From a phage, in assembly GCA_016390365.1 (NCBI GenBank), contig GCA_016390365.1_3043.1: a stretch of 64,000 bases of DNA, one strand, 5' to 3'. Positions 2,833 through 63,648 of the stretch are shown one piece after another (within the stretch, counting starts at the first letter, position 1; every line of letters begins with the position of its first letter). Made by a program: the position numbers and the translations under genes. The notes under the pieces are model-generated. The model did not search any database. It saw only the letters and a program-made list of their open reading frames with translations, and was not told where the DNA came from.

Positions 2833-3048
2833 ATGAAAATCTTTAAAGATGTAAAAGTTGGTGAAATTTTTTGTTTAGATAATGGTGATCAGTTAATTCG
2901 TATTTCACCTCTTAAGAGCGCTAGCGAGAAACCGACAGTTAATGCTACTTTAGCAAATAACAGTAATGAACGTTTCTGTATTGAAAATGATACTGAAACT
3001 TATACCGTAGAAGAGTTTTGGGAATTGAGCGTCGACTGCGACGATTAA
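2833..3048 (+). CDS. hypothetical protein
   Basis: 71-aa ORF with RBS GAGGTGAATT upstream. Confidence 0.5.
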   Translation: MKIFKDVKVGEIFCLDNGDQLIRISPLKSASEKPTVNATLANNSNERFCIENDTETYTVEEFWELSVDCDD

Positions 3049-3108
3049 TTTAATGGCCGCGTGTATTCATGCGGCCTTGGAGTAGAAAATAATTTAGAGG
3101 AAATTAAT

Positions 3109-3567
3109 ATGAAATATATGACTGCTACTGATCTGAATAATGCGGGCGCTACCGTTATTGGTACAATCAAGAACGGTGAATGGTTTTTGGGAACTCCGCA
3201 TAAAGACTTTTTATCTAAACCTGGATTTTACTTTTTAGTGAGTAAATTAGATGGTCGTCCATTTAGTAATCCATGCGTGTCTGCACGATTTTATGTAGGT
3301 AATCAGCGTTCTAAGCAAGGATTCAGTGCAGTTCTAAGTCATATTCGTCAACGTCGGTCTCAGCTTGCACGTACTATTGCAAATAACAATGTTCCATACG
3401 CAGTATTTTATCTGCCTGCTTCTAAGATGAAACCTCTGACGACGGGATTTGGAAAAGGACAGTTAGCTTTAGCGTTTACTCGTAATCATCATTCTGAGTA
3501 TCAAACACTTGAAGAAATGAACCGTATGTTGGCTGATAATTTTAAATTCGTTTTGCAGGCATATTAA
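3109..3567 (+). CDS. ndd: nucleoid disruption protein
   Basis: 152-aa ORF from ATG 3109 ([11 protein letters not shown]...); matches T4 Ndd from memory; track ORF begins upstream at 3061. Confidence 0.88.
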
Positions 3568-3647
3568 TGAGTAATTTCCACAACGAACACGTGATGCAGT
3601 TCTATCGTAATAATCTTAAAACTAAAGGCGTCTTCGGACGCCAGTGA
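3567..3647 (+). CDS. stp: Stp peptide (suppressor of pseT mutations; PrrC anticodon-nuclease activator)
   Basis: 26-aa [29 protein letters not shown], below the track size cutoff; ATG overlaps ndd stop (TAATG). Confidence 0.85.
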
Positions 3648-3654
3648 GGAAAAT

Positions 3655-3813
3655 ATGAATATCGCAAAATTATTAGGAGTTATTTCATTTATTTGTTGGA
3701 TAGTAGCATGTGTTTTAACTATCTGTATTGATGCCAGCAGTGTGTTTTCGCAAGCTTTAGCTCAGGGTATGTGTGCATATTTAACATTTGTGTTGTTATC
3801 TACTAATGATTAA
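3655..3813 (+). CDS. small hydrophobic membrane protein (possible ac)
   Basis: 52-aa ORF, ATG 3655 after GAGGAAAAT; strongly hydrophobic; position matches T4 ac between stp and gene 52. Confidence 0.4.
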   Translation: MNIAKLLGVISFICWIVACVLTICIDASSVFSQALAQGMCAYLTFVLLSTND

Positions 3814-3946
3814 GAAAATCTTGGGCTATTCATTAGCCCTTGTTATTTTATTGATAGCATTATATTACGGAATAATGTTCGGATTAATTCAAGTCGTGCT
3901 TTTCATTTCTGATGTTATTATGGCACTACATTCACTAGTATGGTAA
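3806..3946 (+). CDS. small hydrophobic membrane peptide
   Basis: 46-aa hydrophobic ORF overlapping the previous ORF end; low confidence. Confidence 0.3.
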   Translation: MIKKILGYSLALVILLIALYYGIMFGLIQVVLFISDVIMALHSLVW

Positions 3947-3950
3947 ATTT

Positions 3951-5279
3951 ATGCAACTGAATAATCGTGATTTAAAAAGTATCATTGATAATGAAGCATT
4001 GGCTTATGCTATGTACACGGTTGAAAATCGTGCCATTCCAAATATGATTGACGGATTTAAGCCAGTTCAACGATTTGTTATTGCTCGAGCTCTTGATTTG
4101 GCACGAGGAAATAAAGATAAGTTTCACAAACTCGCTTCTATCGCAGGCGGTGTAGCGGACCTTGGATATCATCATGGTGAAAACTCTGCGCAAGACGCAG
4201 GTGCTTTGATGGCTAACACTTGGAATAATAACTTTCCTCTGTTAGACGGTCAAGGAAACTTTGGTTCTCGTACTGTCCAAAAGGCAGCAGCAAGTCGTTA
4301 TATTTTTGCTCGTGTAAGTAAAAATTTCTATAACGTATATAAAGATACTGAATATGCTCCGGTACATCAAGATAAAGAACACATTCCGCCTGCTTTCTAT
4401 TTGCCTGTTATTCCTACTGTTCTTCTTAATGGCGTTTCCGGTATTGCAACTGGTTATGCAACTTACATTCTTCCTCATAGTGTTTCTTCTGTCAAGAAAG
4501 CTGTACTGCAAGCTCTTCAAGGAAAGAAAGTAACTAAACCGAAGGTAGAATTCCCAGAATTTCGTGGTGAAGTCGTTGAAATTGATGGGCAATATGAAAT
4601 TCGTGGAACATACAAGTTTACTTCACGAACTCAAATGCATATCACTGAGATTCCATATAAGTATGATCGTGAAACTTATGTGAGTAAAATCTTAGACCCG
4701 CTTGAAGATAAAGGCTTCATTACATGGGATGATGCTTGTGGTGAGCATGGCTTTGGCTTCAAAGTTAAATTCCGCAAAGAATACTCTTTGAGCGATAACG
4801 AAGAAGAACGCCATGCAAAAATTATGAAAGACTTCGGGTTGATTGAGCGTCGTTCTCAGAATATTACGGTTATTAATGAGAAAGGAAAACTACAAGTTTA
4901 CGATAACGTGGTTGATTTAATTAAAGACTTCGTTGAAGTTCGTAAAACTTATGTCCAAAAACGAATTGATAACAAAATTAAAGAAACTGAATCAGCATTT
5001 CGTTTAGCCTTTGCCAAGGCGCATTTCATTAAGAAAGTAATTTCAGGTGAAATTGTTGTGCAGGGTAAAACTCGCAAAGAACTGACCGAAGAACTTTCTA
5101 AAATTGATATGTATTCTTCTTATGTTGATAAACTAGTCGGAATGAATATTTTTCATATGACTTCCGACGAAGCAAAGAAACTTGCTGAAGAAGCTAAAGC
5201 TAAGAAAGAAGAAAACGAATATTGGAAAACTACTGATGTAGTTACCGAATACACTAAAGATTTAGAGGAAATCAAATGA
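3951..5279 (+). CDS. 52: DNA topoisomerase II medium subunit (GyrA-like)
   Basis: 442-aa ORF; sequence matches T4 gp52 from memory (MQLNNRDLKSIIDNEALAYAMYTVENRAIPN...). Confidence 0.95.
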   Translation: MQLNNRDLKSIIDNEALAYAMYTVENRAIPNMIDGFKPVQRFVIARALDLARGNKDKFHKLASIAGGVADLGYHHGENSAQDAGALMANTWNNNFPLLDGQGNFGSRTVQKAAASRYIFARVSKNFYNVYKDTEYAPVHQDKEHIPPAFYLPVIPTVLLNGVSGIATGYATYILPHSVSSVKKAVLQALQGKKVTKPKVEFPEFRGEVVEIDGQYEIRGTYKFTSRTQMHITEIPYKYDRETYVSKILDPLEDKGFITWDDACGEHGFGFKVKFRKEYSLSDNEEERHAKIMKDFGLIERRSQNITVINEKGKLQVYDNVVDLIKDFVEVRKTYVQKRIDNKIKETESAFRLAFAKAHFIKKVISGEIVVQGKTRKELTEELSKIDMYSSYVDKLVGMNIFHMTSDEAKKLAEEAKAKKEENEYWKTTDVVTEYTKDLEEIK

Positions 5280-54293: not shown

Positions 54294-54707
54294 ATGAGAT
54301 TAGAAGATCTTCAAGAAGAATTGAAGAAAGATGTGTTTATAGATTCGACTAAATTACAGTATGAAGCAGCTAATAATGTGATGTTATATAGTAAATGGCT
54401 TAATAAGCATTCAAGTATTAAAAAGGAAATGCTTAGAATTGATGCACAGAAAAAAGTTGCTCTTAAAGCTAAATTAGACTACTACTCGGGACGAGGAGAT
54501 GGTGATGAATTTAGTATGGATCGTTACGAGAAATCAGAAATGAAGACAGTTCTATCAGCTGATAAGGATGTTTTAAAGGTTGATACTTCATTACAATATT
54601 GGGGAATTTTATTAGATTTCTGTAGCGGAGCTCTTGATGCTATCAAATCACGCGGATTTGCTATTAAGCACATTCAAGACATGCGAGCATTTGAGGCTGG
54701 AAAATAA
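54294..54707 (+). CDS. uvsY: recombination mediator UvsY
   Basis: 137-aa ORF; MotA-box middle promoter upstream. Confidence 0.9.
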   Translation: MRLEDLQEELKKDVFIDSTKLQYEAANNVMLYSKWLNKHSSIKKEMLRIDAQKKVALKAKLDYYSGRGDGDEFSMDRYEKSEMKTVLSADKDVLKVDTSLQYWGILLDFCSGALDAIKSRGFAIKHIQDMRAFEAGK

Positions 54708-54931
54708 TGAGATATAGCATTGATGATGCTTTTAATTATGAAGAAGAATTTGAAACGGAAATTCAATTCTTAATGAAAAAGTATAATCTCAAGCGTCAGG
54801 ATATTCGTATCCTGGCCGACCACCCATGCGGTGAAGATGTACTTTATGTTAAAGGAAAATTTGCTGGATATCTTGATGAATATTTTTATTCCAAAGATAT
54901 GGGCATTGATATGCATATGAGAGTTATATAA
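54707..54931 (+). CDS. hypothetical protein (uvsY.-1 position)
   Basis: 74-aa ORF overlapping uvsY stop. Confidence 0.5.
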   Translation: MRYSIDDAFNYEEEFETEIQFLMKKYNLKRQDIRILADHPCGEDVLYVKGKFAGYLDEYFYSKDMGIDMHMRVI

Positions 54932-54959
54932 ATAGATATATAATTTAGAGGAGACAATC

Positions 54960-55127
54960 ATGTCAGATAAGATTTGTGTTGTCTGTAAAACTCCAATCGA
55001 TTCTGCATTGGTTGTTGAAACAGACAAAGGTCCTGTACATCCTGGGCCTTGCTATAATTACATTAAAGAACTACCAGTTTCAGAAAGTTCGGAAGAACAA
55101 TTAAATGAAACACAACTTTTGCTATAG
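54960..55127 (+). CDS. small Cys-containing protein (uvsY.-2 position)
   Basis: 55-aa ORF below track cutoff, RBS GGAGACAATC; terminator downstream. Confidence 0.4.
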   Translation: MSDKICVVCKTPIDSALVVETDKGPVHPGPCYNYIKELPVSESSEEQLNETQLLL

Positions 55128-55150
55128 TGTGACCTTTAGTCTATAGTTTT

Positions 55151-55179
55151 GGCCCTTCCTTTTTGGTTGGGCCTTTTTT
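55151..55179 (+). terminator. rho-independent terminator after uvsY operon
   Basis: GGCCC...GGGCC stem followed by TTTTTTAATTT. Confidence 0.6.
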
Positions 55180-55182
55180 AAT

Positions 55183-55425
55183 TTAAAAGCTTTCTTCTAC
55201 TTCATTGTCTGAATCTTCTAATTCAGCTCTTTTTCCTGCCAAAGCATCTCTCACAGAGATGTCATCAGTATCTTTTAATTCAGTTTCTTTAACTCTTTTC
55301 TTATAATAAGCTTCAAGTTCTTCTAAACCTTCTAATGTTTGACAAGAGGCAATTTTACCCATAAATTCATCAATAGAAGCTTCATAAAGAAATTGTTTAA
55401 ATTCTAGTAACATCTTTTTCTCCAA
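55183..55425 (-). CDS. uvsW.1: UvsW.1 protein
   Basis: 80-aa acidic ORF immediately downstream of uvsW on the same strand. Confidence 0.6.
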   Translation of the reverse strand: MEKKMLLEFKQFLYEASIDEFMGKIASCQTLEGLEELEAYYKKRVKETELKDTDDISVRDALAGKRAELEDSDNEVEESF

Positions 55426-55438
55426 AGGGCCGAAGCCC

Positions 55439-56950
55439 TTATAAATTAACTGTTTTCATTACGTAATTAAATTTTTCATCTGCGTAGCGCTGAATACGAT
55501 CAATGCCGTGTTTTAAAAGATAGTTCAAATGAACGTATTTCTTTTTCGTATTAGCAGATTTTGGCTTGACGCCTGCGTCATCTATAAGATCCCAGACTGT
55601 TGCAATTGTTTTAGAACCATGTTTACGTAATACGCGACCTATTGTTTGCAATACAATAATTTTAGATTTAACACCGTGTGCTAAAACAACGTGATGCAGA
55701 TTTTTAACTGAAATACCAGTAGAAAATACACCATAACTAGCTACTATAATTATTCCTTTACCGTTTTCAGCTAAGGTTTTCATTATATTGCGGGTTTCGG
55801 TATCAACTTCCCCTGATACGTAATAAACTTTATCGTATTCATTTTTAATTAAATCGAAAATAGCTTTACCGTGCGATACGTGTTTAAACATGACAAAAGC
55901 GTTTTCATCTTTTTGTGCAAGCTTAATAGCTAATTTAGCGATCCATTTATTTCTTTTACTAAGCCCAGTAATAATTTTTATTTCTTCTTGGTAAGTTTTT
56001 CCCTTTAATTTAGTAGTGAACTCATCGGGATAGCGAAGAAAAATACTATTAATTTTTAACTCAGTTACTTGTCCATCTTCCATTAATTTAGAGGTCGTTA
56101 CTGGCTTAAATATTTCACCGAACATTCCAACATACTGCATGATATTGGCTTTGCCATCACGTAATGAACCAGACAAACCGAATTTGAACATGCAGTTATT
56201 TAAACCTGATATGATAGATGAAATACTTTTTCCTGTAGCAAGATGACATTCATCATTCATCATCATTCCAAACTGTGAGAACCATTCTTTCGGTTGTTTT
56301 ACTACAGTTTGCCATGTACCAACAACGACCGGTGCATCATTTTTATATTTATCATCTTTTGATGCTCCACCACCGATTTTCTTTATCATTGCATGACTGA
56401 ATAAACGATAGTCAACAAAGTCATCAGCCATCTGAGTTGTCAGAGCAGTTGTTGGAACAATAATAAGAATTTTGCCTTCATAATTTTCCAAATAATACCG
56501 AGCAAGCAAAGCTTGAATTAAAGATTTACCTGCGGATGTTGGAAGATTAAGAATTCTACGACGATTAACTAATCCTTCGAACACTGCATCTTTTTGATAC
56601 CAATGCGGTTCAATTCTTTTATTTCCTGAATAGATTTCTAATTTAGAAAGCCATTCATCAAAATCTTTTCTTGATAATTCTTCTTTTTCGTTAATCTGTG
56701 GGTCAATCCAGGCTTTATAGCCAAAGTTATCGCAGAACTTTTTAATTTGCCCGACTAAACCGAATGGAAGAAGGCGATTATAATCTAAAAGACGAATTCG
56801 TCCATCCCAGTGGCCATATTTGTACTTCGGATTAAAACGATACCCATCAGCTTCAAAGCTAAAGAAATCACGGAGTTCATGAAATGTACTTTCTTCACAA
56901 TCAATTCTCACGTGACTAAAATCATAAAAATGTACTTTAATGTCAGTCAT
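55439..56950 (-). CDS. uvsW: RNA-DNA and DNA-DNA helicase UvsW
   Basis: 503-aa ORF with SF2 helicase motifs (PTSAGKS Walker A, DECH box); late promoter upstream. Confidence 0.95.
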   Translation of the reverse strand: MTDIKVHFYDFSHVRIDCEESTFHELRDFFSFEADGYRFNPKYKYGHWDGRIRLLDYNRLLPFGLVGQIKKFCDNFGYKAWIDPQINEKEELSRKDFDEWLSKLEIYSGNKRIEPHWYQKDAVFEGLVNRRRILNLPTSAGKSLIQALLARYYLENYEGKILIIVPTTALTTQMADDFVDYRLFSHAMIKKIGGGASKDDKYKNDAPVVVGTWQTVVKQPKEWFSQFGMMMNDECHLATGKSISSIISGLNNCMFKFGLSGSLRDGKANIMQYVGMFGEIFKPVTTSKLMEDGQVTELKINSIFLRYPDEFTTKLKGKTYQEEIKIITGLSKRNKWIAKLAIKLAQKDENAFVMFKHVSHGKAIFDLIKNEYDKVYYVSGEVDTETRNIMKTLAENGKGIIIVASYGVFSTGISVKNLHHVVLAHGVKSKIIVLQTIGRVLRKHGSKTIATVWDLIDDAGVKPKSANTKKKYVHLNYLLKHGIDRIQRYADEKFNYVMKTVNL

Positions 56951-56979
56951 GTCTAAATACCATGTAATAAATATATCTA

Positions 56980-56987
56980 TATTTATA
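56980..56987 (-). promoter_or_regulatory. late promoter (TATAAATA) for uvsW
   Basis: TATTTATA on plus strand, 29 nt upstream of uvsW ATG. Confidence 0.6.
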
Positions 56988-57000
56988 CTGAGGAAATATT

Positions 57001-57681
57001 ATGATAGATAAAGATTATATTGCAGAGCTGAAGGCTCTTGATGATAATAAAGAAGCTAAAGCTAAATTAGCTGAATATGCTGAACAGTTTGGTATAAAGG
57101 TCAAAAAGAATAAATCTTTTGATAATATCGTTAATGATATTGAAGAAGCCCTCCAGAAGCTCGCTAGTGAACCTATGCCAGAGACTGATGGGTTATCTAT
57201 TAAAGACTTAATTGATGCTGCTGATGCCGCAGAGGGATTAAAATATGACGATGAAGAAGTCAATCCAGAAGCAGCACTTTTGATTGATTCTCCGGTTAAA
57301 TCTGACATTAAAATTGAAGTAGTAGAAACGGATAAAATTCCTGAAAATACTGATGTTTTGATTGAAGACACTCCTTTTGTTGAAGAAAAATTCGAACAAG
57401 CTGTAGCTGAGATTATTGAATCTGAAAAGCCGTCTGTATTTACTCTTCCGGAAAACTTTAGCCCGAATCTTCAGTTGATTGGAAAAAATCCAGGATTCTG
57501 CACTGTTCCTTGGTGGATTTATCAATGGATTGCTGAAACTCCGGATTGGAAATCTCACCCAACAAGTTTTGAACATGCGTCGGCACACCAAACTTTATTT
57601 AGCTTAATTTACTACATTAATCGTGACGGATCAGTTCTAATTCGTGAAACACGTAATTCTTCTTTCGTAACATTAAAATAA
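57001..57681 (+). CDS. inh: prohead protease inhibitor Inh (assignment by position)
   Basis: 226-aa acidic ORF between uvsW and hoc. Confidence 0.6.
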   Translation: MIDKDYIAELKALDDNKEAKAKLAEYAEQFGIKVKKNKSFDNIVNDIEEALQKLASEPMPETDGLSIKDLIDAADAAEGLKYDDEEVNPEAALLIDSPVKSDIKIEVVETDKIPENTDVLIEDTPFVEEKFEQAVAEIIESEKPSVFTLPENFSPNLQLIGKNPGFCTVPWWIYQWIAETPDWKSHPTSFEHASAHQTLFSLIYYINRDGSVLIRETRNSSFVTLK

Positions 57682-57690
57682 GGATAACTT

Positions 57691-59097
57691 ATGGCTTTTA
57701 CAGTTGATATAACTCCTAAAACATCTACTGGAGTTATAGATCAGACTCAGCAGTTTACTGCTACACCCAGTGGTCAAACTGGAGATGGACCTATTACATA
57801 TGCTTGGACTGTAGACGACGCTCCACAGGAAGAAACGTCAGCAACTTTTAGTTATGTACTAAAAGGACCTGCCGGTCAAAAGACTATTAAAGTAGTTGCA
57901 ACCAATCAAGTTGCAGAATCTGAACCTGAAACAGCTGAAATTAGTACAACTATCACAGTTCAAAATAAGACACAAACAACTACTTTGGCAGTAACTCCTG
58001 GTAGCCCTGATGCTGGAGTGATTGGAACTCCAATTGAATTTACCGCTGCCTTAGCTTCACAGCCATCAGGTGCAAACGCTACGTATCAATGGTACGTTGA
58101 CGGTTCTCCTGTGGGCGAAGCAACTAGCACTACATTCAATTACACTCCTGACGCAAGCGGAGTTAAAACAATTAAGTGCGTAGCTCAAGTAACCGCGACA
58201 GATTATGATACAAAGGAAGTTACTTCCAATGAAGTGTCACTGACTGTTAATAAAAAGACGCAGACAACTACCTTGGCAGTAACTCCTGATAGTCCTCCAG
58301 CTGGAGTAATTGGAACCCCAGTTCAATTTACTGCTGCCTTGGTTTCTCAACCTGATGGAGCGTCTGCTACATATAAATGGTATGTAGATGATTCTCAAAT
58401 TGGTGGAGAAACTAACTCTACATTTAACTATACTCCAACTACAAGTGGAGTAAAAAGAATTAAATGCGTAGCCCAAGTAACGGCTGAAAATTATAATGAA
58501 AAGGAAGTTACTTCTAATGAAGTATCATTAACAGTTAATAAGAAGACAATGAATCCACAGGTTACATTGACTCCTCCTTCTATTAACGTTCAGCAAGATG
58601 CTTCGGCTACATTTACTGCTAATGTTACGGATGCTCCAGAAGAAGCACAAATCGAATATTCATGGAAGAAAGATTCTTCTCCTGTAGAAGAATCAACTAA
58701 TGTATACACGGTTGATACATCATCTATTGGAAGTCAAACTATTGAAGTTACTGCAACCGACTATGATAGTAAAACAGTTAAAGCAACAGGCCAAGTTCAG
58801 GTAACTGATAAAGTTGCTCCGGAACCAGAAGGTGAATTGCCTTATGTTCATCCTCTTCCACATCGCACTTCAGCTTATATCTGGTGCGGTTGGTGGGTTA
58901 TGGATGAAATCCAAAAAATGACCGAAGAAGGTAAAGATTGGAAAACTGGAGATCCAGATAGTAAATACTACCTGCATCGTTACACTCTTCAGAAGATGAT
59001 GAAAGACTATCCAGAAGTTGATGTTCAAGAATCACGCAATGGATACATCATTCATAAAACTGCTTTAGAAACTGGTATCATCTATACCTATCCATAA
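57691..59097 (+). CDS. hoc: highly immunogenic outer capsid protein Hoc (expanded)
   Basis: 468-aa ORF of tandem Ig-like domains plus C-terminal capsid-binding region; about 92 aa longer than T4 Hoc. Confidence 0.85.
   Translation: MAFTVDITPKTSTGVIDQTQQFTATPSGQTGDGPITYAWTVDDAPQEETSATFSYVLKGPAGQKTIKVVATNQVAESEPETAEISTTITVQNKTQTTTLAVTPGSPDAGVIGTPIEFTAALASQPSGANATYQWYVDGSPVGEATSTTFNYTPDASGVKTIKCVAQVTATDYDTKEVTSNEVSLTVNKKTQTTTLAVTPDSPPAGVIGTPVQFTAALVSQPDGASATYKWYVDDSQIGGETNSTFNYTPTTSGVKRIKCVAQVTAENYNEKEVTSNEVSLTVNKKTMNPQVTLTPPSINVQQDASATFTANVTDAPEEAQIEYSWKKDSSPVEESTNVYTVDTSSIGSQTIEVTATDYDSKTVKATGQVQVTDKVAPEPEGELPYVHPLPHRTSAYIWCGWWVMDEIQKMTEEGKDWKTGDPDSKYYLHRYTLQKMMKDYPEVDVQESRNGYIIHKTALETGIIYTYP
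57967..58542 (+). repeat. hoc: tandem duplication of a 288-nt Ig-like domain unit inside hoc
   Basis: Units 57967..58254 and 58255..58542 encode near-identical 96-aa segments (KTQTTTLAVTP...SNEVSLTVNKK); nucleotide identity estimated by eye at about 80 percent. Confidence 0.85.
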
Positions 59098-59107
59098 TCA
59101 TAATCAT

Positions 59108-59135
59108 AAGGGGCTTCGGCCCCTTTCTTCATTTT
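59108..59135 (+). terminator. rho-independent terminator after hoc (CUUCGG hairpin)
   Basis: AAGGGGCTTCGGCCCCTT followed by TCTTCATTTT. Confidence 0.65.
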
Positions 59136-59192
59136 GAAAGCACACAAAACATACTCAGAAAATGATGTATATAATGGCATCAACTCGATAAC

Positions 59193-59390
59193 ATGAGATT
59201 GATTATGAGAACTGAGGTTGTGGTGTTTACTCTTCATGAGTCTGGAAAGTCATTCATTGAAATTGCTCGTGAATTAAACTTACAGGCGAAAGAAGTGGCT
59301 GTATTATGGGCTCGAGCTATGACTGCTAAGAATAAATTTGAAACTCGAGAAAAAGTTGTCTATAGAAAAAGATATATTAATAAAAGGTGA
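59193..59390 (+). CDS. hypothetical protein
   Basis: 65-aa ORF; alternative start at 59205. Confidence 0.4.
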   Translation: MRLIMRTEVVVFTLHESGKSFIEIARELNLQAKEVAVLWARAMTAKNKFETREKVVYRKRYINKR

Positions 59391-59393
59391 AAA

Positions 59394-59672
59394 ATGGAAC
59401 AGTATGATCTTTATGAAAATGAATCTTTTGCTAATCGATTACGCGAAAAAGCACTTAAAAGTAAACAGTTTAAGCTAGAGTGTTTTATTAAAGATTTTTC
59501 GGAACTTGCTAATAAAGCAGCTGAACAAGGTAAAACATATTTTAGTTATTATTGTACTGCTCGCGATAAATTGATTACTGAAGAAATTGGTGATTGGCTG
59601 AGAAAAGAAGGATTTAGCTTTAAAGTCAATAGTGATCAGCGTGATGGTGATTGGTTAGAAATTACATTTTGA
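59394..59672 (+). CDS. hypothetical protein
   Basis: 92-aa ORF upstream of rnlB. Confidence 0.5.
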   Translation: MEQYDLYENESFANRLREKALKSKQFKLECFIKDFSELANKAAEQGKTYFSYYCTARDKLITEEIGDWLRKEGFSFKVNSDQRDGDWLEITF

Positions 59673-59681
59673 GGATTAATT

Positions 59682-60686
59682 ATGTTTAAAAAGTATAGCA
59701 GTCTTGAAAATCATTACAATTCTAAATTCATTGAAAAACTTTATAGTTTAGGATTGACTGGTGGCGAATGGGTAGCTCGTGAAAAGATTCATGGCACAAA
59801 TTTCTCATTAATTATTGAGCGTGATAAAGTAACTTGTGCTAAACGCACTGGTCCTATTCTTCCTGCTGAAGATTTCTTTGGGTATGAAATTATTTTGAAG
59901 AATTACGCTGATTCCATTAAAGCAGTACAAGATATTATGGAAACTTCAGCGGTTGTATCTTATCAAGTCTTCGGTGAATTCGCCGGACCTGGCATTCAGA
60001 AGAATGTCGATTATGGCGATAAAGATTTTTATGTATTTGACATTATTGTTACTACAGAAAGTGGTGATGTGACTTATGTCGATGATTATATGATGGAATC
60101 ATTCTGCAATACATTTAAATTTAAAATGGCTCCACTTTTAGGTCGCGGTAAATTTGAAGAACTTATTAAATTGCCAAATGATTTAGATTCTGTCGTCCAG
60201 GATTATAATTTTACGGTAGACCATGCTGGATTAGTTGATGCAAATAAATGCGTTTGGAATGCTGAAGTAAAAGGCGAAGTATTTACCGCTGAAGGATATG
60301 TATTGAAACCTTGTTATCCTTCTTGGATGCCTAATGGCAATCGCGTAGCTATCAAATGCAAGAACTCTAAATTTAGTGAAAAGAAAAAGTCTGATAAGCC
60401 TATTAAAGCTAAAGTTGAACTGTCAGAAGCTGATAACAAATTGGTTGGAATTTTAGCTTGTTACGTTACACTGAACCGAGTAAATAACGTTATTTCTAAA
60501 ATTGGTGAAATTGGTCCAAAAGATTTTGGAAAGGTGATGGGGCTAACTGTTCAAGATATTTTGGAAGAAACTTCTCGTGAAGGTATTACTCTAACTCAAG
60601 CGGATAATCCTTCTTTGATTAAGAAGGAATTAGTTAAAATGGTACAAGATGTACTTCGTCCGGCTTGGATTGAATTGGTAAGTTAA
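59682..60686 (+). CDS. rnlB: RNA ligase 2
   Basis: 334-aa ORF with nucleotidyltransferase motif KIHGTN; matches T4 Rnl2. Confidence 0.95.
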
Positions 60687-60690
60687 ATAA

Positions 60691-60720
60691 AAAGGGACCT
60701 TTCGGTCCCTTTGTTTTATT
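60691..60720. terminator. bidirectional terminator between rnlB and gene 24
   Basis: AAAGGGACCTTTCGGTCCCTTT with T/A runs on both sides. Confidence 0.7.
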
Positions 60721-61999
60721 CATCAATGATAATTTTTGGTAGCTTAACACCTAATAAAACAGACAAATCTGAACGACCCGCCATTTTATCCATGTCTCCA
60801 CCATCAATTACTCTTGCTTCTTTTTCATCTTTTGCTACAGTGTAAGGATTTGCAGATAAAGCATATCTAACTAATAAACCGATAGATGGCTGCAAACTTT
60901 CTGGATCAACTACAACTTTAAATGCACCTACATGTTCAGGGTCATCTAAGTCAAGACCTTCTGTATACGGGGCATAGAAAATTGATCCAACAATTTCTTT
61001 TTCACCAATATTTTCTACTACGCCAACGATTACATAATCTAATGGACTGTTGGTATCGCAATAAAGCGGTAAACCATTAGCTAAGAACCCGTAGGCATTT
61101 TGTGAAAGATATTTGTCATCTTCTGGTTTATGTTTTAACCAACCTGATGCAGCAAGAATCGCAGCGGCACGAGCTGAAGCAACACAGAACGTTGCTGTAT
61201 AAGTTGATTCTTTCTGGATATGTGAAACCATTTCACACACCATTCGGTATAATGAACGACCAGCTTCAGGCGCAGATGCATAACTCAAATCAATGAATCC
61301 AGTATCAGTAATTCCTGTAACTTTATAGCGTTTTGACACTGTAATCAAAGACTGCAGAATATCTTTATTGATTTCATCTGCCATTTCGGTTGCAAGCAAA
61401 TCTTCCAAGAAATTAGGAGCATCGAATCCATTTGCTTCTAAATCTTGTGCTAATTCGACTGTGATGCCAGTTTTAAGTTTACGAGATTTAACTGCGGTTT
61501 GCCATTTATTAATCTGGAATCTAGCATCCGCAATTTCGCTATCAGAGCTTTCAAATTTGCTTGTTACTGCAGCATCAGAAAATAGACGAACTTTTAAAAG
61601 AACAATTGCAATCTGAAGAGCTAATTCTAAATCGCTTTCTTCAATATCAGCAAATGGTGTATCTTCTAATACTTTATAAACGATATTATTATATTTGAAT
61701 AAATCACCTTTATTGAGAGTTAATTTAGACTCTTCTGTTAATTCTGTGATTTGTTCTCGGTCTACATACCCAGCTTCGCCGGCGTAAGTAGCACCAGTTT
61801 TAAATGTAAATTCGTTATCCGGGTTAAGGTATTTGATACCATAAAAAGCAGCAACAGGTTGATTAGTTCTTTGCGTTGCTACAATGTCAGAATATATTAA
61901 TTTAGTGGTAGCGCGAGTCAAAGCAACGAGATTTGGGCGACCGATTGAGTTGCTATTCGTTGTGGTTGATTCGCGCAGAAGTTCGTTGATTTTAGCCAT
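60716..61999 (-). CDS. 24: capsid vertex protein gp24
   Basis: 427-aa ORF; similar to the gp23 fold region; late promoter 28 nt upstream. Confidence 0.9.
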   Translation of the reverse strand: MAKINELLRESTTTNSNSIGRPNLVALTRATTKLIYSDIVATQRTNQPVAAFYGIKYLNPDNEFTFKTGATYAGEAGYVDREQITELTEESKLTLNKGDLFKYNNIVYKVLEDTPFADIEESDLELALQIAIVLLKVRLFSDAAVTSKFESSDSEIADARFQINKWQTAVKSRKLKTGITVELAQDLEANGFDAPNFLEDLLATEMADEINKDILQSLITVSKRYKVTGITDTGFIDLSYASAPEAGRSLYRMVCEMVSHIQKESTYTATFCVASARAAAILAASGWLKHKPEDDKYLSQNAYGFLANGLPLYCDTNSPLDYVIVGVVENIGEKEIVGSIFYAPYTEGLDLDDPEHVGAFKVVVDPESLQPSIGLLVRYALSANPYTVAKDEKEARVIDGGDMDKMAGRSDLSVLLGVKLPKIIIDE

Positions 62000-62026
62000 T
62001 GCGCTTTCCTTTTGGTTTATATGATT

Positions 62027-62034
62027 TATTTATA
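62027..62034 (-). promoter_or_regulatory. late promoter (TATAAATA) for gene 24
   Basis: TATTTATA on plus strand, 27 nt upstream of gene 24 ATG. Confidence 0.65.
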
Positions 62035-62040
62035 CCATAA

Positions 62041-62068
62041 AAACAACTAAAGGGACCCGAAGGTCCCT
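62041..62068 (-). terminator. rho-independent terminator after gene 23
   Basis: Minus-strand hairpin GGGACCTTCGGGTCCC (UUCG loop) followed by TAGTTGTTTT. Confidence 0.7.
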
Positions 62069-62082
62069 TAAATCGTCAAAGA

Positions 62083-63648
62083 TTAGATACCTTTAACATA
62101 TACACGGCGGAAGTAAGCGTTTTTACCAAGGCTATTCAGAATAGAAGGCATACCGCTCTGGATGCGAGAAGCCGGAGCCTGAGCAGCGGATTCTGCAAAT
62201 GGGTTGATACCGATACCGTAACGAGTTTTGAATCCCATTACCGGTTGGAAGTTCTTCGGATCAGAACCACGCAGCGGAGTCAGAGCTACATATGGAGCAT
62301 AGTAAATACCAGCATCCATTTCGTTCGGACCTTTATAACCTACAGTGAAATAATCCTGTTTAGCATACTGGTCGATATATACACGGTATTTACCACCCAG
62401 AACACCAGCAAATACTGACTTGGTAGTATCAGTGTTAAAGCCGGTAGCCAGACCCTGTGCAGCATAAGAAATGCCAGTATCAACTGAAGCCAGAACGTTA
62501 ACTACGTTACGGGAAGCGATAATGAAGTTACCTTCGCCGCGACCAGTCTGACGAGCAATTTCAACTGCTTCTTTGTCAATCTGGAACAACAGAGCTTTAA
62601 AGGATTCACCTGCCCAGCGAGCACCACGAATATCAATCGGATCCTGGAAGTCAAATACACCAGCTTTAGAACCCGGAGTCAGGGTCATACCAGATTTACC
62701 AACCTGAGCTGAGTAGTTAATCCAATCAACAACTTCGCGGTTGATTTCCAGCATAATTTCGGTAGCCAGAATACCGGACAGTTCAGCATCAGCATCCATA
62801 CCGTGAACAGCGCGGAGGTCCTGTGCTAATTCGATAGAGTAAGCAGCTTTCAGCTGACGAGATTTAGCTTCGATAACTTGTTTATCGATACGGAAGCCCA
62901 TTTCATTCCATGGGTTATCGGTAGAACCGTTGAAACCTTCCTGAAGTTCAGCGATAGAAGTAGCCATGCCTTCAGCGATTTCTACCAGTACACCAGCTTC
63001 CATTTGTTTCTTAACTTCGGCATCTAATTTAGCAGCATCAGTCGCACCAGCATCGATTGTTACTACAGCGGAAGCTTGCAGATACACAGTACCAGTTTCC
63101 TGGAAGAAGTGAGTATAGATATCACCTACAACGGTTTGTGTGCTAGCAGCAAGAGCTGGGAATTTCTTAGCAGCACCCTGACCAGAGAACATTGCATCTG
63201 GACCATACATTGGGTGGAATGCTTCTTTAGCATCGGAAGCGATTGGGTCTTTACCATATACTGCACGCAGTGCGAATACCTGGCCAGTCGGGCTGTTCAT
63301 CGGCTGAACACCGCAAATATCGAAAGCAATCAGGTTAGGAATAGCACGACGTACCATACCCATAACAGCCGGGCCAATCTGAGTTACTGCGCCAGAAGTC
63401 TGACCTGCAGCGATGTTGGTAGCATTGTAACCGTGGTCACCACCGATTTCAGCTTCTGTTAAGAAAGAACCAAATGCCTGAGCAATTTTTTCGTCTTTAT
63501 ATTCCGGAGCTGTCTGGAAATCTTTTTCCTGGTTTTCAAAGATTTTAGCGATAATCGCTTGTTTGCTATTAGCAATTTCCGGTAAACCTTCACCTTCCAG
63601 TAATGGCTTCCATTTGTTCAAAAGTTCAGCTTTAGTTTTGATAGTCAT
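62083..63648 (-). CDS. 23: major capsid protein gp23
   Basis: 521-aa ORF, same length as T4 gp23 precursor; strongly biased codon usage. Confidence 0.97.
   Translation of the reverse strand: MTIKTKAELLNKWKPLLEGEGLPEIANSKQAIIAKIFENQEKDFQTAPEYKDEKIAQAFGSFLTEAEIGGDHGYNATNIAAGQTSGAVTQIGPAVMGMVRRAIPNLIAFDICGVQPMNSPTGQVFALRAVYGKDPIASDAKEAFHPMYGPDAMFSGQGAAKKFPALAASTQTVVGDIYTHFFQETGTVYLQASAVVTIDAGATDAAKLDAEVKKQMEAGVLVEIAEGMATSIAELQEGFNGSTDNPWNEMGFRIDKQVIEAKSRQLKAAYSIELAQDLRAVHGMDADAELSGILATEIMLEINREVVDWINYSAQVGKSGMTLTPGSKAGVFDFQDPIDIRGARWAGESFKALLFQIDKEAVEIARQTGRGEGNFIIASRNVVNVLASVDTGISYAAQGLATGFNTDTTKSVFAGVLGGKYRVYIDQYAKQDYFTVGYKGPNEMDAGIYYAPYVALTPLRGSDPKNFQPVMGFKTRYGIGINPFAESAAQAPASRIQSGMPSILNSLGKNAYFRRVYVKGI

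Follow-up and report, generated by a model that had tools for sequence, protein, structure and literature searches.

An apparently old and widely shared four-Ig-domain hoc allele in a T4-like phage

The hoc gene in the stretch of phage DNA analysed here (the window: 64,000 nucleotides of contig GCA_016390365.1_3043.1, NCBI GenBank assembly GCA_016390365.1) very probably represents the four-Ig form of the gene in a T4-like phage, in which two neighbouring 96-codon units, A and B, go back to an old common origin as paralogues and are shared with relatives. The same reading holds that the array of units is variable, that the allele moves laterally, and that the copy in the window is the G4500/G4507 allele with a 12-bp deletion. 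The encoded protein would be laid out as domain 1, unit A, unit B, a last Ig-like domain and a C-terminal capsid-binding domain. A sizeable share of the T4-like phages with known sequence would have inherited units A and B together, A first, with T4 carrying a B-type unit only. The middle of Hoc would be a variable-number array of 96-codon Ig units, with zero to three units giving 2 to 5 Ig-like domains in total. The number of units would shift through unequal or illegitimate recombination between them, and the whole hoc allele would travel between phage genomes via homologous recombination.

The hoc gene and the layout of its product

The gene was originally predicted to be hoc, encoding 468 aa against 376 aa in T4, and the open reading frame list and a protein comparison bear this out. 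T4 Hoc, 376 aa long in five PDB entries (5vf3_Z among them), matches the 468-aa window protein with E = 5e-215 in phmmer, and Pfam gives PKD, Ig_2, Ig_3 and I-set matches. The order of open reading frames in the window (uvsW, inh, hoc, 24.3, 24.2, rnlB, 24, 23) is that of T4, with genes 24 and 23 beyond rnlB on the opposite strand. An identical gene order is annotated in the ime09, phage 107, G4500 and wV7 records. The locus contains the following features:

55439-56950, minus strand: uvsW, neighbour of inh and hoc
57001-57681, plus strand: inh, directly 5' of hoc
57680..57684, plus strand: AAGGA, Shine-Dalgarno-like, 6 nt before the hoc ATG, sharing bases with the inh stop codon (direct reading)
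57691..59097, plus strand: hoc coding sequence, four-Ig allele, for the highly immunogenic outer capsid protein, 468 aa plus stop (open reading frame list)
59108..59135, plus strand: hairpin AAGGGGCTTCGGCCCCTT resembling an intrinsic terminator, with a T-rich tail behind it (terminator scan)
59682-60686: rnlB, 3' of hoc and of two small open reading frames equivalent to 24.3 and 24.2

A ribosome binding site is annotated in the phage 107 record at the position equivalent to AAGGA. The terminator-like hairpin is GC-rich and starts 11 nt past the hoc stop codon, and a terminator is annotated at the equivalent place in G29 and G4500. A scan for sigma-70 promoters, using a tool whose models exclude T4 late promoters, gave fewer hits than were found in shuffled sequence. 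Judged from its sequence, this is the hoc of a T4-like (Tequatrovirus-type) phage, and the gene is intact and looks expressed. Its predicted product has a mass of 50.6 kDa and a pI of 4.51, compared with 40.4 kDa and 4.74 for T4 Hoc.

The protein divides into five segments, all encoded on the plus strand:

57691..57966, plus strand: Ig-like domain 1, aa 1-92, aligning with T4 Hoc 1-92
57967..58254, plus strand: repeat unit A, aa 93-188, the one Ig-like domain more than T4 has
58255..58542, plus strand: repeat unit B, aa 189-284, orthologue of T4 Hoc domain 2
58543..58818, plus strand: last Ig-like domain, aa 285-376, orthologue of T4 Hoc domain 3 and 4 aa shorter
58819..59094, plus strand: C-terminal capsid-binding domain, aa 377-468, nearly identical to T4 Hoc 285-376

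The phmmer alignment with T4 falls into two blocks: residues 1-124 of the window protein match T4 1-124, and residues 189-468 match T4 93-376. The second block identifies unit B as the T4 domain-2 orthologue. T4 Hoc (376 aa; PDB 5vf3, 8t1x, 8t9r; PMC10385173) thus shares the gene position and domains 1, 2 (= unit B) and 3 with the window, but it lacks unit A, which in the window protein separates domain 1 from the T4-type domain 2. The excess in length had been put down to one extra in-frame Ig-like domain, and this stands, the 92 aa being the balance of a 96-residue domain gained and four residues lost in a separate microdeletion. In the alignment, the last Ig-like domain shows a 4-residue gap against T4 189-284.

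The coordinates originally given for the two 96-codon units were exact. Units A and B lie in frame and head-to-tail and are identical at 220/288 nt (76%) and 74/96 aa (77%). Tandem Repeats Finder reports an array at 57955-58548 with a period of 288, 2.1 copies, 77% matches and a score of 706, and an ungapped repeat finder returns two 288-nt copies with 76% identity. Under a codon-shuffle null of 2000 shuffles, the units share 87.5 +/- 7.4 nucleotides and never more than 114. Alignment z-scores detect relatedness among all four N-terminal domains, with z = 53 for the A–B protein alignment and z = 9-13 for the other pairs of Ig domains.

An AlphaFold2 model built from 29 aligned Hocs predicts four beta-sandwich domains, with residues 1-290 mostly at pLDDT 81-96. 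Domain 1 is modelled as a beta-sandwich at pLDDT 81-93, the strands of the last Ig-like domain span residues 290-372, and the repeat-unit boundaries fall in predicted inter-domain linkers at ~92-97, 188-193 and 284-289. The C-terminal domain of the model is of low confidence (pLDDT 43-59), and its sequence is almost identical to that of the solved T4 domain: only 3 substitutions separate it from T4 285-376 (dN 0.011), and most of its positions are invariant among the 29 aligned Hocs. The best matches to the model in a Foldseek comparison with the PDB are four-Ig chains, namely Dscam1 Ig1-4, Sidekick Ig1-4 and ICAM-5 D1-D4 (E ~1e-13).

Ig number among relatives and movement of the allele

A protein search returned 907 homologues of the window Hoc. 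Among the best 120 of the protein clusters, built at 90% identity, 81 fall at 372-377 aa, 30 at 468-472 aa and 9 at 567-570 aa, length classes with three, four and five Ig domains, respectively. At the nucleotide level, a megablast search with hoc matched 679 records among 50,697 phage records. Sixty of the 679, taken at even spacing, were sampled, which gives sample frequencies rather than a full census; 50 of these records carry a full-length hoc, at ~1419 bp (four Ig) in 17/50 and 1131 bp (three Ig) in 33/50. The original prediction of a Hoc enlarged by tandem Ig duplication is right that the extra domain is real; the domain is not particular to this phage, given its presence in 17/50 of the sampled genes. 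On sequence evidence, four-Ig Hoc appears to be an old, common and ordinary variant, carried by about a third of related phages.

The four-Ig A–B form is present in G4500, G4507, G29, ime09, wV7, phiD1 and moskry, and RefSeq genomes with a four-Ig hoc include ime09, wV7 and G4507. Lengths were confirmed for ime09 (472 aa), moskry (472 aa), wV7 (474 aa), ESh16 (568 aa) and PNJ-9 (283 aa). G4500/G4507 (NC_054919), ime09 (NC_019503), wV7 (NC_019505), Yersinia phage phiD1 and PYps14T all have the identical layout of domain 1, A, B, last Ig-like domain and C-terminal domain, and in ime09, moskry and wV7 the types of unit and their order are as in the window. The moskry record annotates a repeat_region within hoc. 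The exact Hoc protein of the window is already in NCBI (P0009). A search for contigs encoding exactly P0009 came back empty, and hoc had no megablast match among complete E. coli genomes. Among the four-Ig clusters, the first unit is A-like in 29/30 and the second is B-like in 30/30. Across the 30 four-Ig alleles, only 3/96 residues are diagnostic of position, all of them in the central loop (SPV.EA versus SQVGGE), and units this mosaic do not fit a simple tree.

Longer and shorter arrays are built from the same parts. The five-Ig Hocs (568-570 aa) of Shigella phage ESh16 and Escherichia phages UGKSEcP1/2 use the same 96-codon unit and capsid-binding domain. In PNJ-9, a "variant Hoc" of 283 aa with two Ig domains (Fu et al. 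2024, PMC11853027) consists of domain 1, one A-type unit and the C-terminal domain, without the T4-type third domain. The Hoc-like fibre of Serratia phage Muldoon, with 10 Ig domains (PMC10385173), follows the same principle, but it is distant in sequence and its Ig string is much longer.

The clearest case of a change in unit number comes from Escherichia phage 107 (OQ599309, 376 aa). Its Hoc is the same allele at every nucleotide outside the repeat, and its gene equals the G4500/window allele minus exactly one 288-bp period, except that it keeps the 12 bp missing from the window. The single unit of phage 107 has an A head and a B tail: in nt 1-78 all 13 diagnostic sites are A-type, and in nt 87-288 every such site is B-type. 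The two types are joined within an 8-bp tract that is identical in both units of the window:

58045..58052, plus strand: GCTGCCTT, identical tract in unit A, where the 288-bp deletion of phage 107 is resolved
58333..58340, plus strand: GCTGCCTT, the partner of 58045-58052 in unit B

Because A and B are 24% divergent, the four-Ig form is no fresh duplication of the phage 107 chimera, and the change therefore went from four Ig to three. Taking 96 aa out of a four-Ig cluster also gives, to within 3 mismatches, at least six other three-Ig clusters, which differ in breakpoint (aa 92, 107, 115, 129 and 176) and in parent. A five-Ig cluster shortened by 96 residues matches one of the four-Ig clusters apart from 5 mismatches. 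The clean deletion derivatives, phage 107 and the other three-Ig alleles, indicate that the array contracts recurrently in nature. Whole-period length differences with a chimeric junction unit mark the middle of hoc as what appears to be a domain array shaped by unequal recombination. Changes of other kinds also occur, as in G29, where a 55-bp tandem duplication inside unit A splits hoc. The gene is split or frameshifted in several four-Ig GenBank entries, namely G29, FriedrichMiescher ("Hoc part 1/2") and Ec_YwIITB1.

The allele also appears to move as a whole. The window hoc has 3 differences in 1407 nt from that of G4500/phage 107, whereas both flanks are ~2-3% diverged, ten-fold more. A four-Ig allele that is ~90% identical is carried by moskry, a Mosigvirus. 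That hoc is less diverged than its flanks and that a four-Ig allele occurs in a Mosigvirus together argue for lateral exchange of the allele.

Such exchange is also the basis of a different account of how the four-Ig arrangement arose. An out-of-register crossover between A-type and B-type three-Ig alleles during co-infection would join the two units directly, and the divergence between A and B would then be allelic rather than a measure of the age of the arrangement. Single-unit three-Ig alleles of the required kinds exist, with an A-type loop in 33 clusters and a B-type loop in 31. The flank comparison and the moskry allele show hoc alleles moving between genomes, and the conserved string TV(N/Q)(N/K)KTQTTTLAVTP, common to the domain boundaries, could help units exchange out of register. 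However, many single-unit alleles are deletion derivatives of four-Ig alleles, so A-only and B-only forms need not be ancestral, and the near-uniform order of A then B fits a single origin under either model. A crossover origin is considered unlikely, though it retains an appreciable share of the probability. Whether the pair arose by duplication followed by divergence or by crossover, the arrangement is old and shared.

The age of the A–B pair

The tandem arrangement was originally described as a fairly recent duplication, and on this point the silent sites disagree. At third codon positions, A and B are identical at only 57/96. Nei-Gojobori estimates for the units and for the neighbouring segments of the gene are as follows:

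Unit A versus unit B: dS 0.96, dN 0.15, dN/dS 0.16
Unit B versus T4 domain 2: dS 0.25
Unit A versus T4 domain 2: dS 0.89
Domain 1, window versus T4: dS 0.30
C-terminal domain, window versus T4: dS 0.27

The silent divergence between A and B is near saturation and is three to four times the window–T4 value in hoc (0.25-0.30), which argues that the duplication is not recent; these dS values may be distorted by gene conversion, as the units are mosaic and strictly position-diagnostic at just 3/96 positions. In ime09 and ESh16 the orthologue of unit A is the first of their units, at dS 0.14-0.21. The divergence between units is of a similar order within relatives, with inter-unit dS values of 1.0 in G4500, 0.66 in ime09 and 1.15 in moskry. 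Close relatives thus have the same number of Ig domains with comparable identity between them, as these three phages show, and this is the very finding that was originally named as refuting the idea. By these measures A and B are, it appears, old paralogues that are both under purifying selection.

It is accordingly very improbable that one Ig domain was duplicated recently, in frame and in this lineage alone, giving a tandem repeat that might still be unstable in the phage stock. Such an event would account for a repeat that is perfectly in frame and head-to-tail, for an A–B z-score far above that of any other pair of domains, and for the absence of the extra unit from T4. Yet fresh copies would be expected to be near-identical, which the dS and third-position values contradict, and both units, in this order and equally diverged, are found in many relatives. 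Least probable of all is an assembly artefact, in which a mis-assembled repeat inflates hoc: the several split or frameshifted four-Ig genes in GenBank suggest a region that is error-prone or genuinely mutable, but this explanation was rejected because A and B differ at 68/288 nt, so that reads map uniquely, the open reading frame is intact, and dozens of independent assemblies, produced by various laboratories on various platforms, show the same architecture.

The predicted fibre and the deletion particular to the window

T4 Hoc is a ~180 Å linear fibre, present at one per gp23 hexamer and 155 per capsid; the protein is acidic, and the phage can do without it (PMC10385173). In T4-like phages a Hoc monomer sits at the centre of each gp23 hexamer of the mature capsid and is not needed for growth. 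Fucosylated mucin glycans are ligands of Hoc (PMC9271167, PMC11853027), and point changes in the protein alter this binding (PMC9271167). With old paralogous units A and B in place, each of the 155 fibres would be one Ig domain, or ~4 nm, longer than the ~18 nm T4 fibre, and the protein would be ~10 kDa heavier and more acidic than that of T4. Two domain-2-type modules, instead of one, would be offered to mucin glycans or bacterial surfaces. A longer fibre with possibly altered adhesion or display, as the original prediction proposed, is a reasonable expectation from the sequence.

In domain 2 of PNJ-9 Hoc, S183, L184 and T185 are reported to contact MUC2 and to be needed for binding to it (PMC11853027), and the SLT motif occurs twice in the window Hoc, at 183-185 and 279-281. 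The second domain-2-type module and its SLT copy could raise avidity or broaden the range of ligands, and the doubled motif provides a concrete avidity hypothesis. T4 D246, which has been implicated in glycan binding (PMC9271167), has its equivalent kept as D342 in the window protein. It is possible, though doubtful, that Ig number (2, 3, 4 or 5) is a balanced polymorphism that tunes adherence to mucus or bacterial surfaces, with the three-Ig form of T4 derived and the four-Ig A–B form ancestral.

The three-Ig Hoc of T4 is not the sole norm: Hoc has four Ig domains in about one-third of sequenced relatives, and two- and five-Ig forms occur as well. Such variation is relevant to Hoc display and to comparisons of mucus adherence among therapeutic T4-like phages. 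Given the natural loss of whole units, four- and five-Ig Hocs, whether engineered or natural, may be unstable on passage. The gene in the window itself matters little, as it is a standard allele that has been deposited many times.

Much of this is already known. Hundreds of public records, RefSeq among them, contain the four-Ig architecture, and a variable Ig count has been published as a principle: the number of Ig domains differs among Hoc homologues, which present a linear Ig string on a conserved capsid-binding domain (PMC10385173). In the literature on T4-like coliphages, no explicit four- or five-Ig Hoc allele or Hoc domain duplication was found. The related papers are the general statement on variable Ig number (PMC10385173) and the description of the two-Ig PNJ-9 form (PMC11853027). 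No paper was found that makes explicit the three-, four- and five-Ig polymorphism with recurrent loss of units in close relatives of T4, and the novelty here is modest.

What distinguishes the window allele from its nearest relatives is small. It differs from the hoc of G4500, G29 and phage 107 by 3 SNPs each, plus 12 missing base pairs at the following site:

58747..58758, plus strand: the single remaining copy of GTTACTGCAACC, site of a 12-bp in-frame deletion (DNA alignment with G4500, G29 and phage 107)

The relatives have two tandem 12-bp copies at this site, GTTACTGCAACC GTTACAGCAACC, encoding VTATVTAT. The loss falls in the last Ig-like domain and gives 468 rather than 472 aa; Hocs of the G4500/G4507, ime09 and wV7 type have 472-474 aa, and the window protein lacks the VTAT encoded by the 12 bp. 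From this alignment, the window hoc appears to be the G4500/G4507 allele with a 12-bp slippage deletion in the last Ig-like domain. The hairpin of that domain is left with the length seen in units A and B, and an unrelated three-Ig allele, P0061 (372 aa), has the same 4-residue gap.

Divergence around hoc and its distribution

The hoc cassette of the window (57691-59097) is nearly identical to that of Escherichia phages G4500 and 107, with only 3 differences in 1407 nt (0.2%), whereas the flanking segments on both sides (54691-57690 and 59098-62110) diverge from the same two phages by ~2-3%, with 4-12 differences per 300 nt. Because divergence dips locally at hoc relative to its flanks, the sequence comparison suggests that the cassette was laterally exchanged recently among genomes that are more distant elsewhere. 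A four-Ig gene ~90% identical to the window's hoc is also found in Escherichia phage moskry, which is assigned to another genus and whose record carries a repeat_region annotated across both units. Just 3' of hoc there is a 6-nt length difference between the window and both G4500 and phage 107, and the small ORF there is listed at 65 aa, counted from its first ATG, versus the 204-nt (67-aa) genes annotated in relatives.

L005 (moskry locus; MN850651, genus Mosigvirus), 1501-2919: four-Ig hoc
Window, 59193-59390: small ORF 3' of hoc, 24.3 equivalent, 65 aa

Unit loss and split genes

The hoc gene of phage 107 is the window's allele minus exactly one 288-bp unit. Its junction unit is a chimera with the head of A and the tail of B, resolved within an 8-bp identical tract, GCTGCCTT. 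In Escherichia phage vB_EcoM_G29, a 55-bp tandem duplication in unit A causes a frameshift, and hoc is annotated as two overlapping CDSs ("PKD domain protein"). Further split four-Ig hoc genes are found in GenBank in FriedrichMiescher ("Hoc part 1/2"), Ec_YwIITB1, and UFV09. Such splits may come from sequencing errors, or hoc, which is dispensable, may truly be inactivated in these phages.

L001 (phage 107 locus; OQ599309), 3001-4131: hoc
L002 (G29 locus; MK327940), 3001-4474: hoc

Short repeats and divergent units

In the last Ig domain of the window's hoc, a 12-bp tandem repeat (VTATVTAT) is reduced from two copies to one. An identical 4-residue gap occurs in P0061 (372 aa), an unrelated three-Ig allele, so slippage at this site may be recurrent.

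Window, 58747-58758: 12-bp in-frame deletion, last Ig domain of hoc

The inserted Ig units of two other Hoc homologues, P0047 (472 aa) and P0072 (567 aa), are far more divergent (e.g., ...VAVTPASPAPVEIGTATTFTANVSNQPSG...). The divergent inserted units in some four- and five-Ig Hocs share 50-57% identity with A and B, so distant units, and not A/B-type copies alone, also went into building these arrays.
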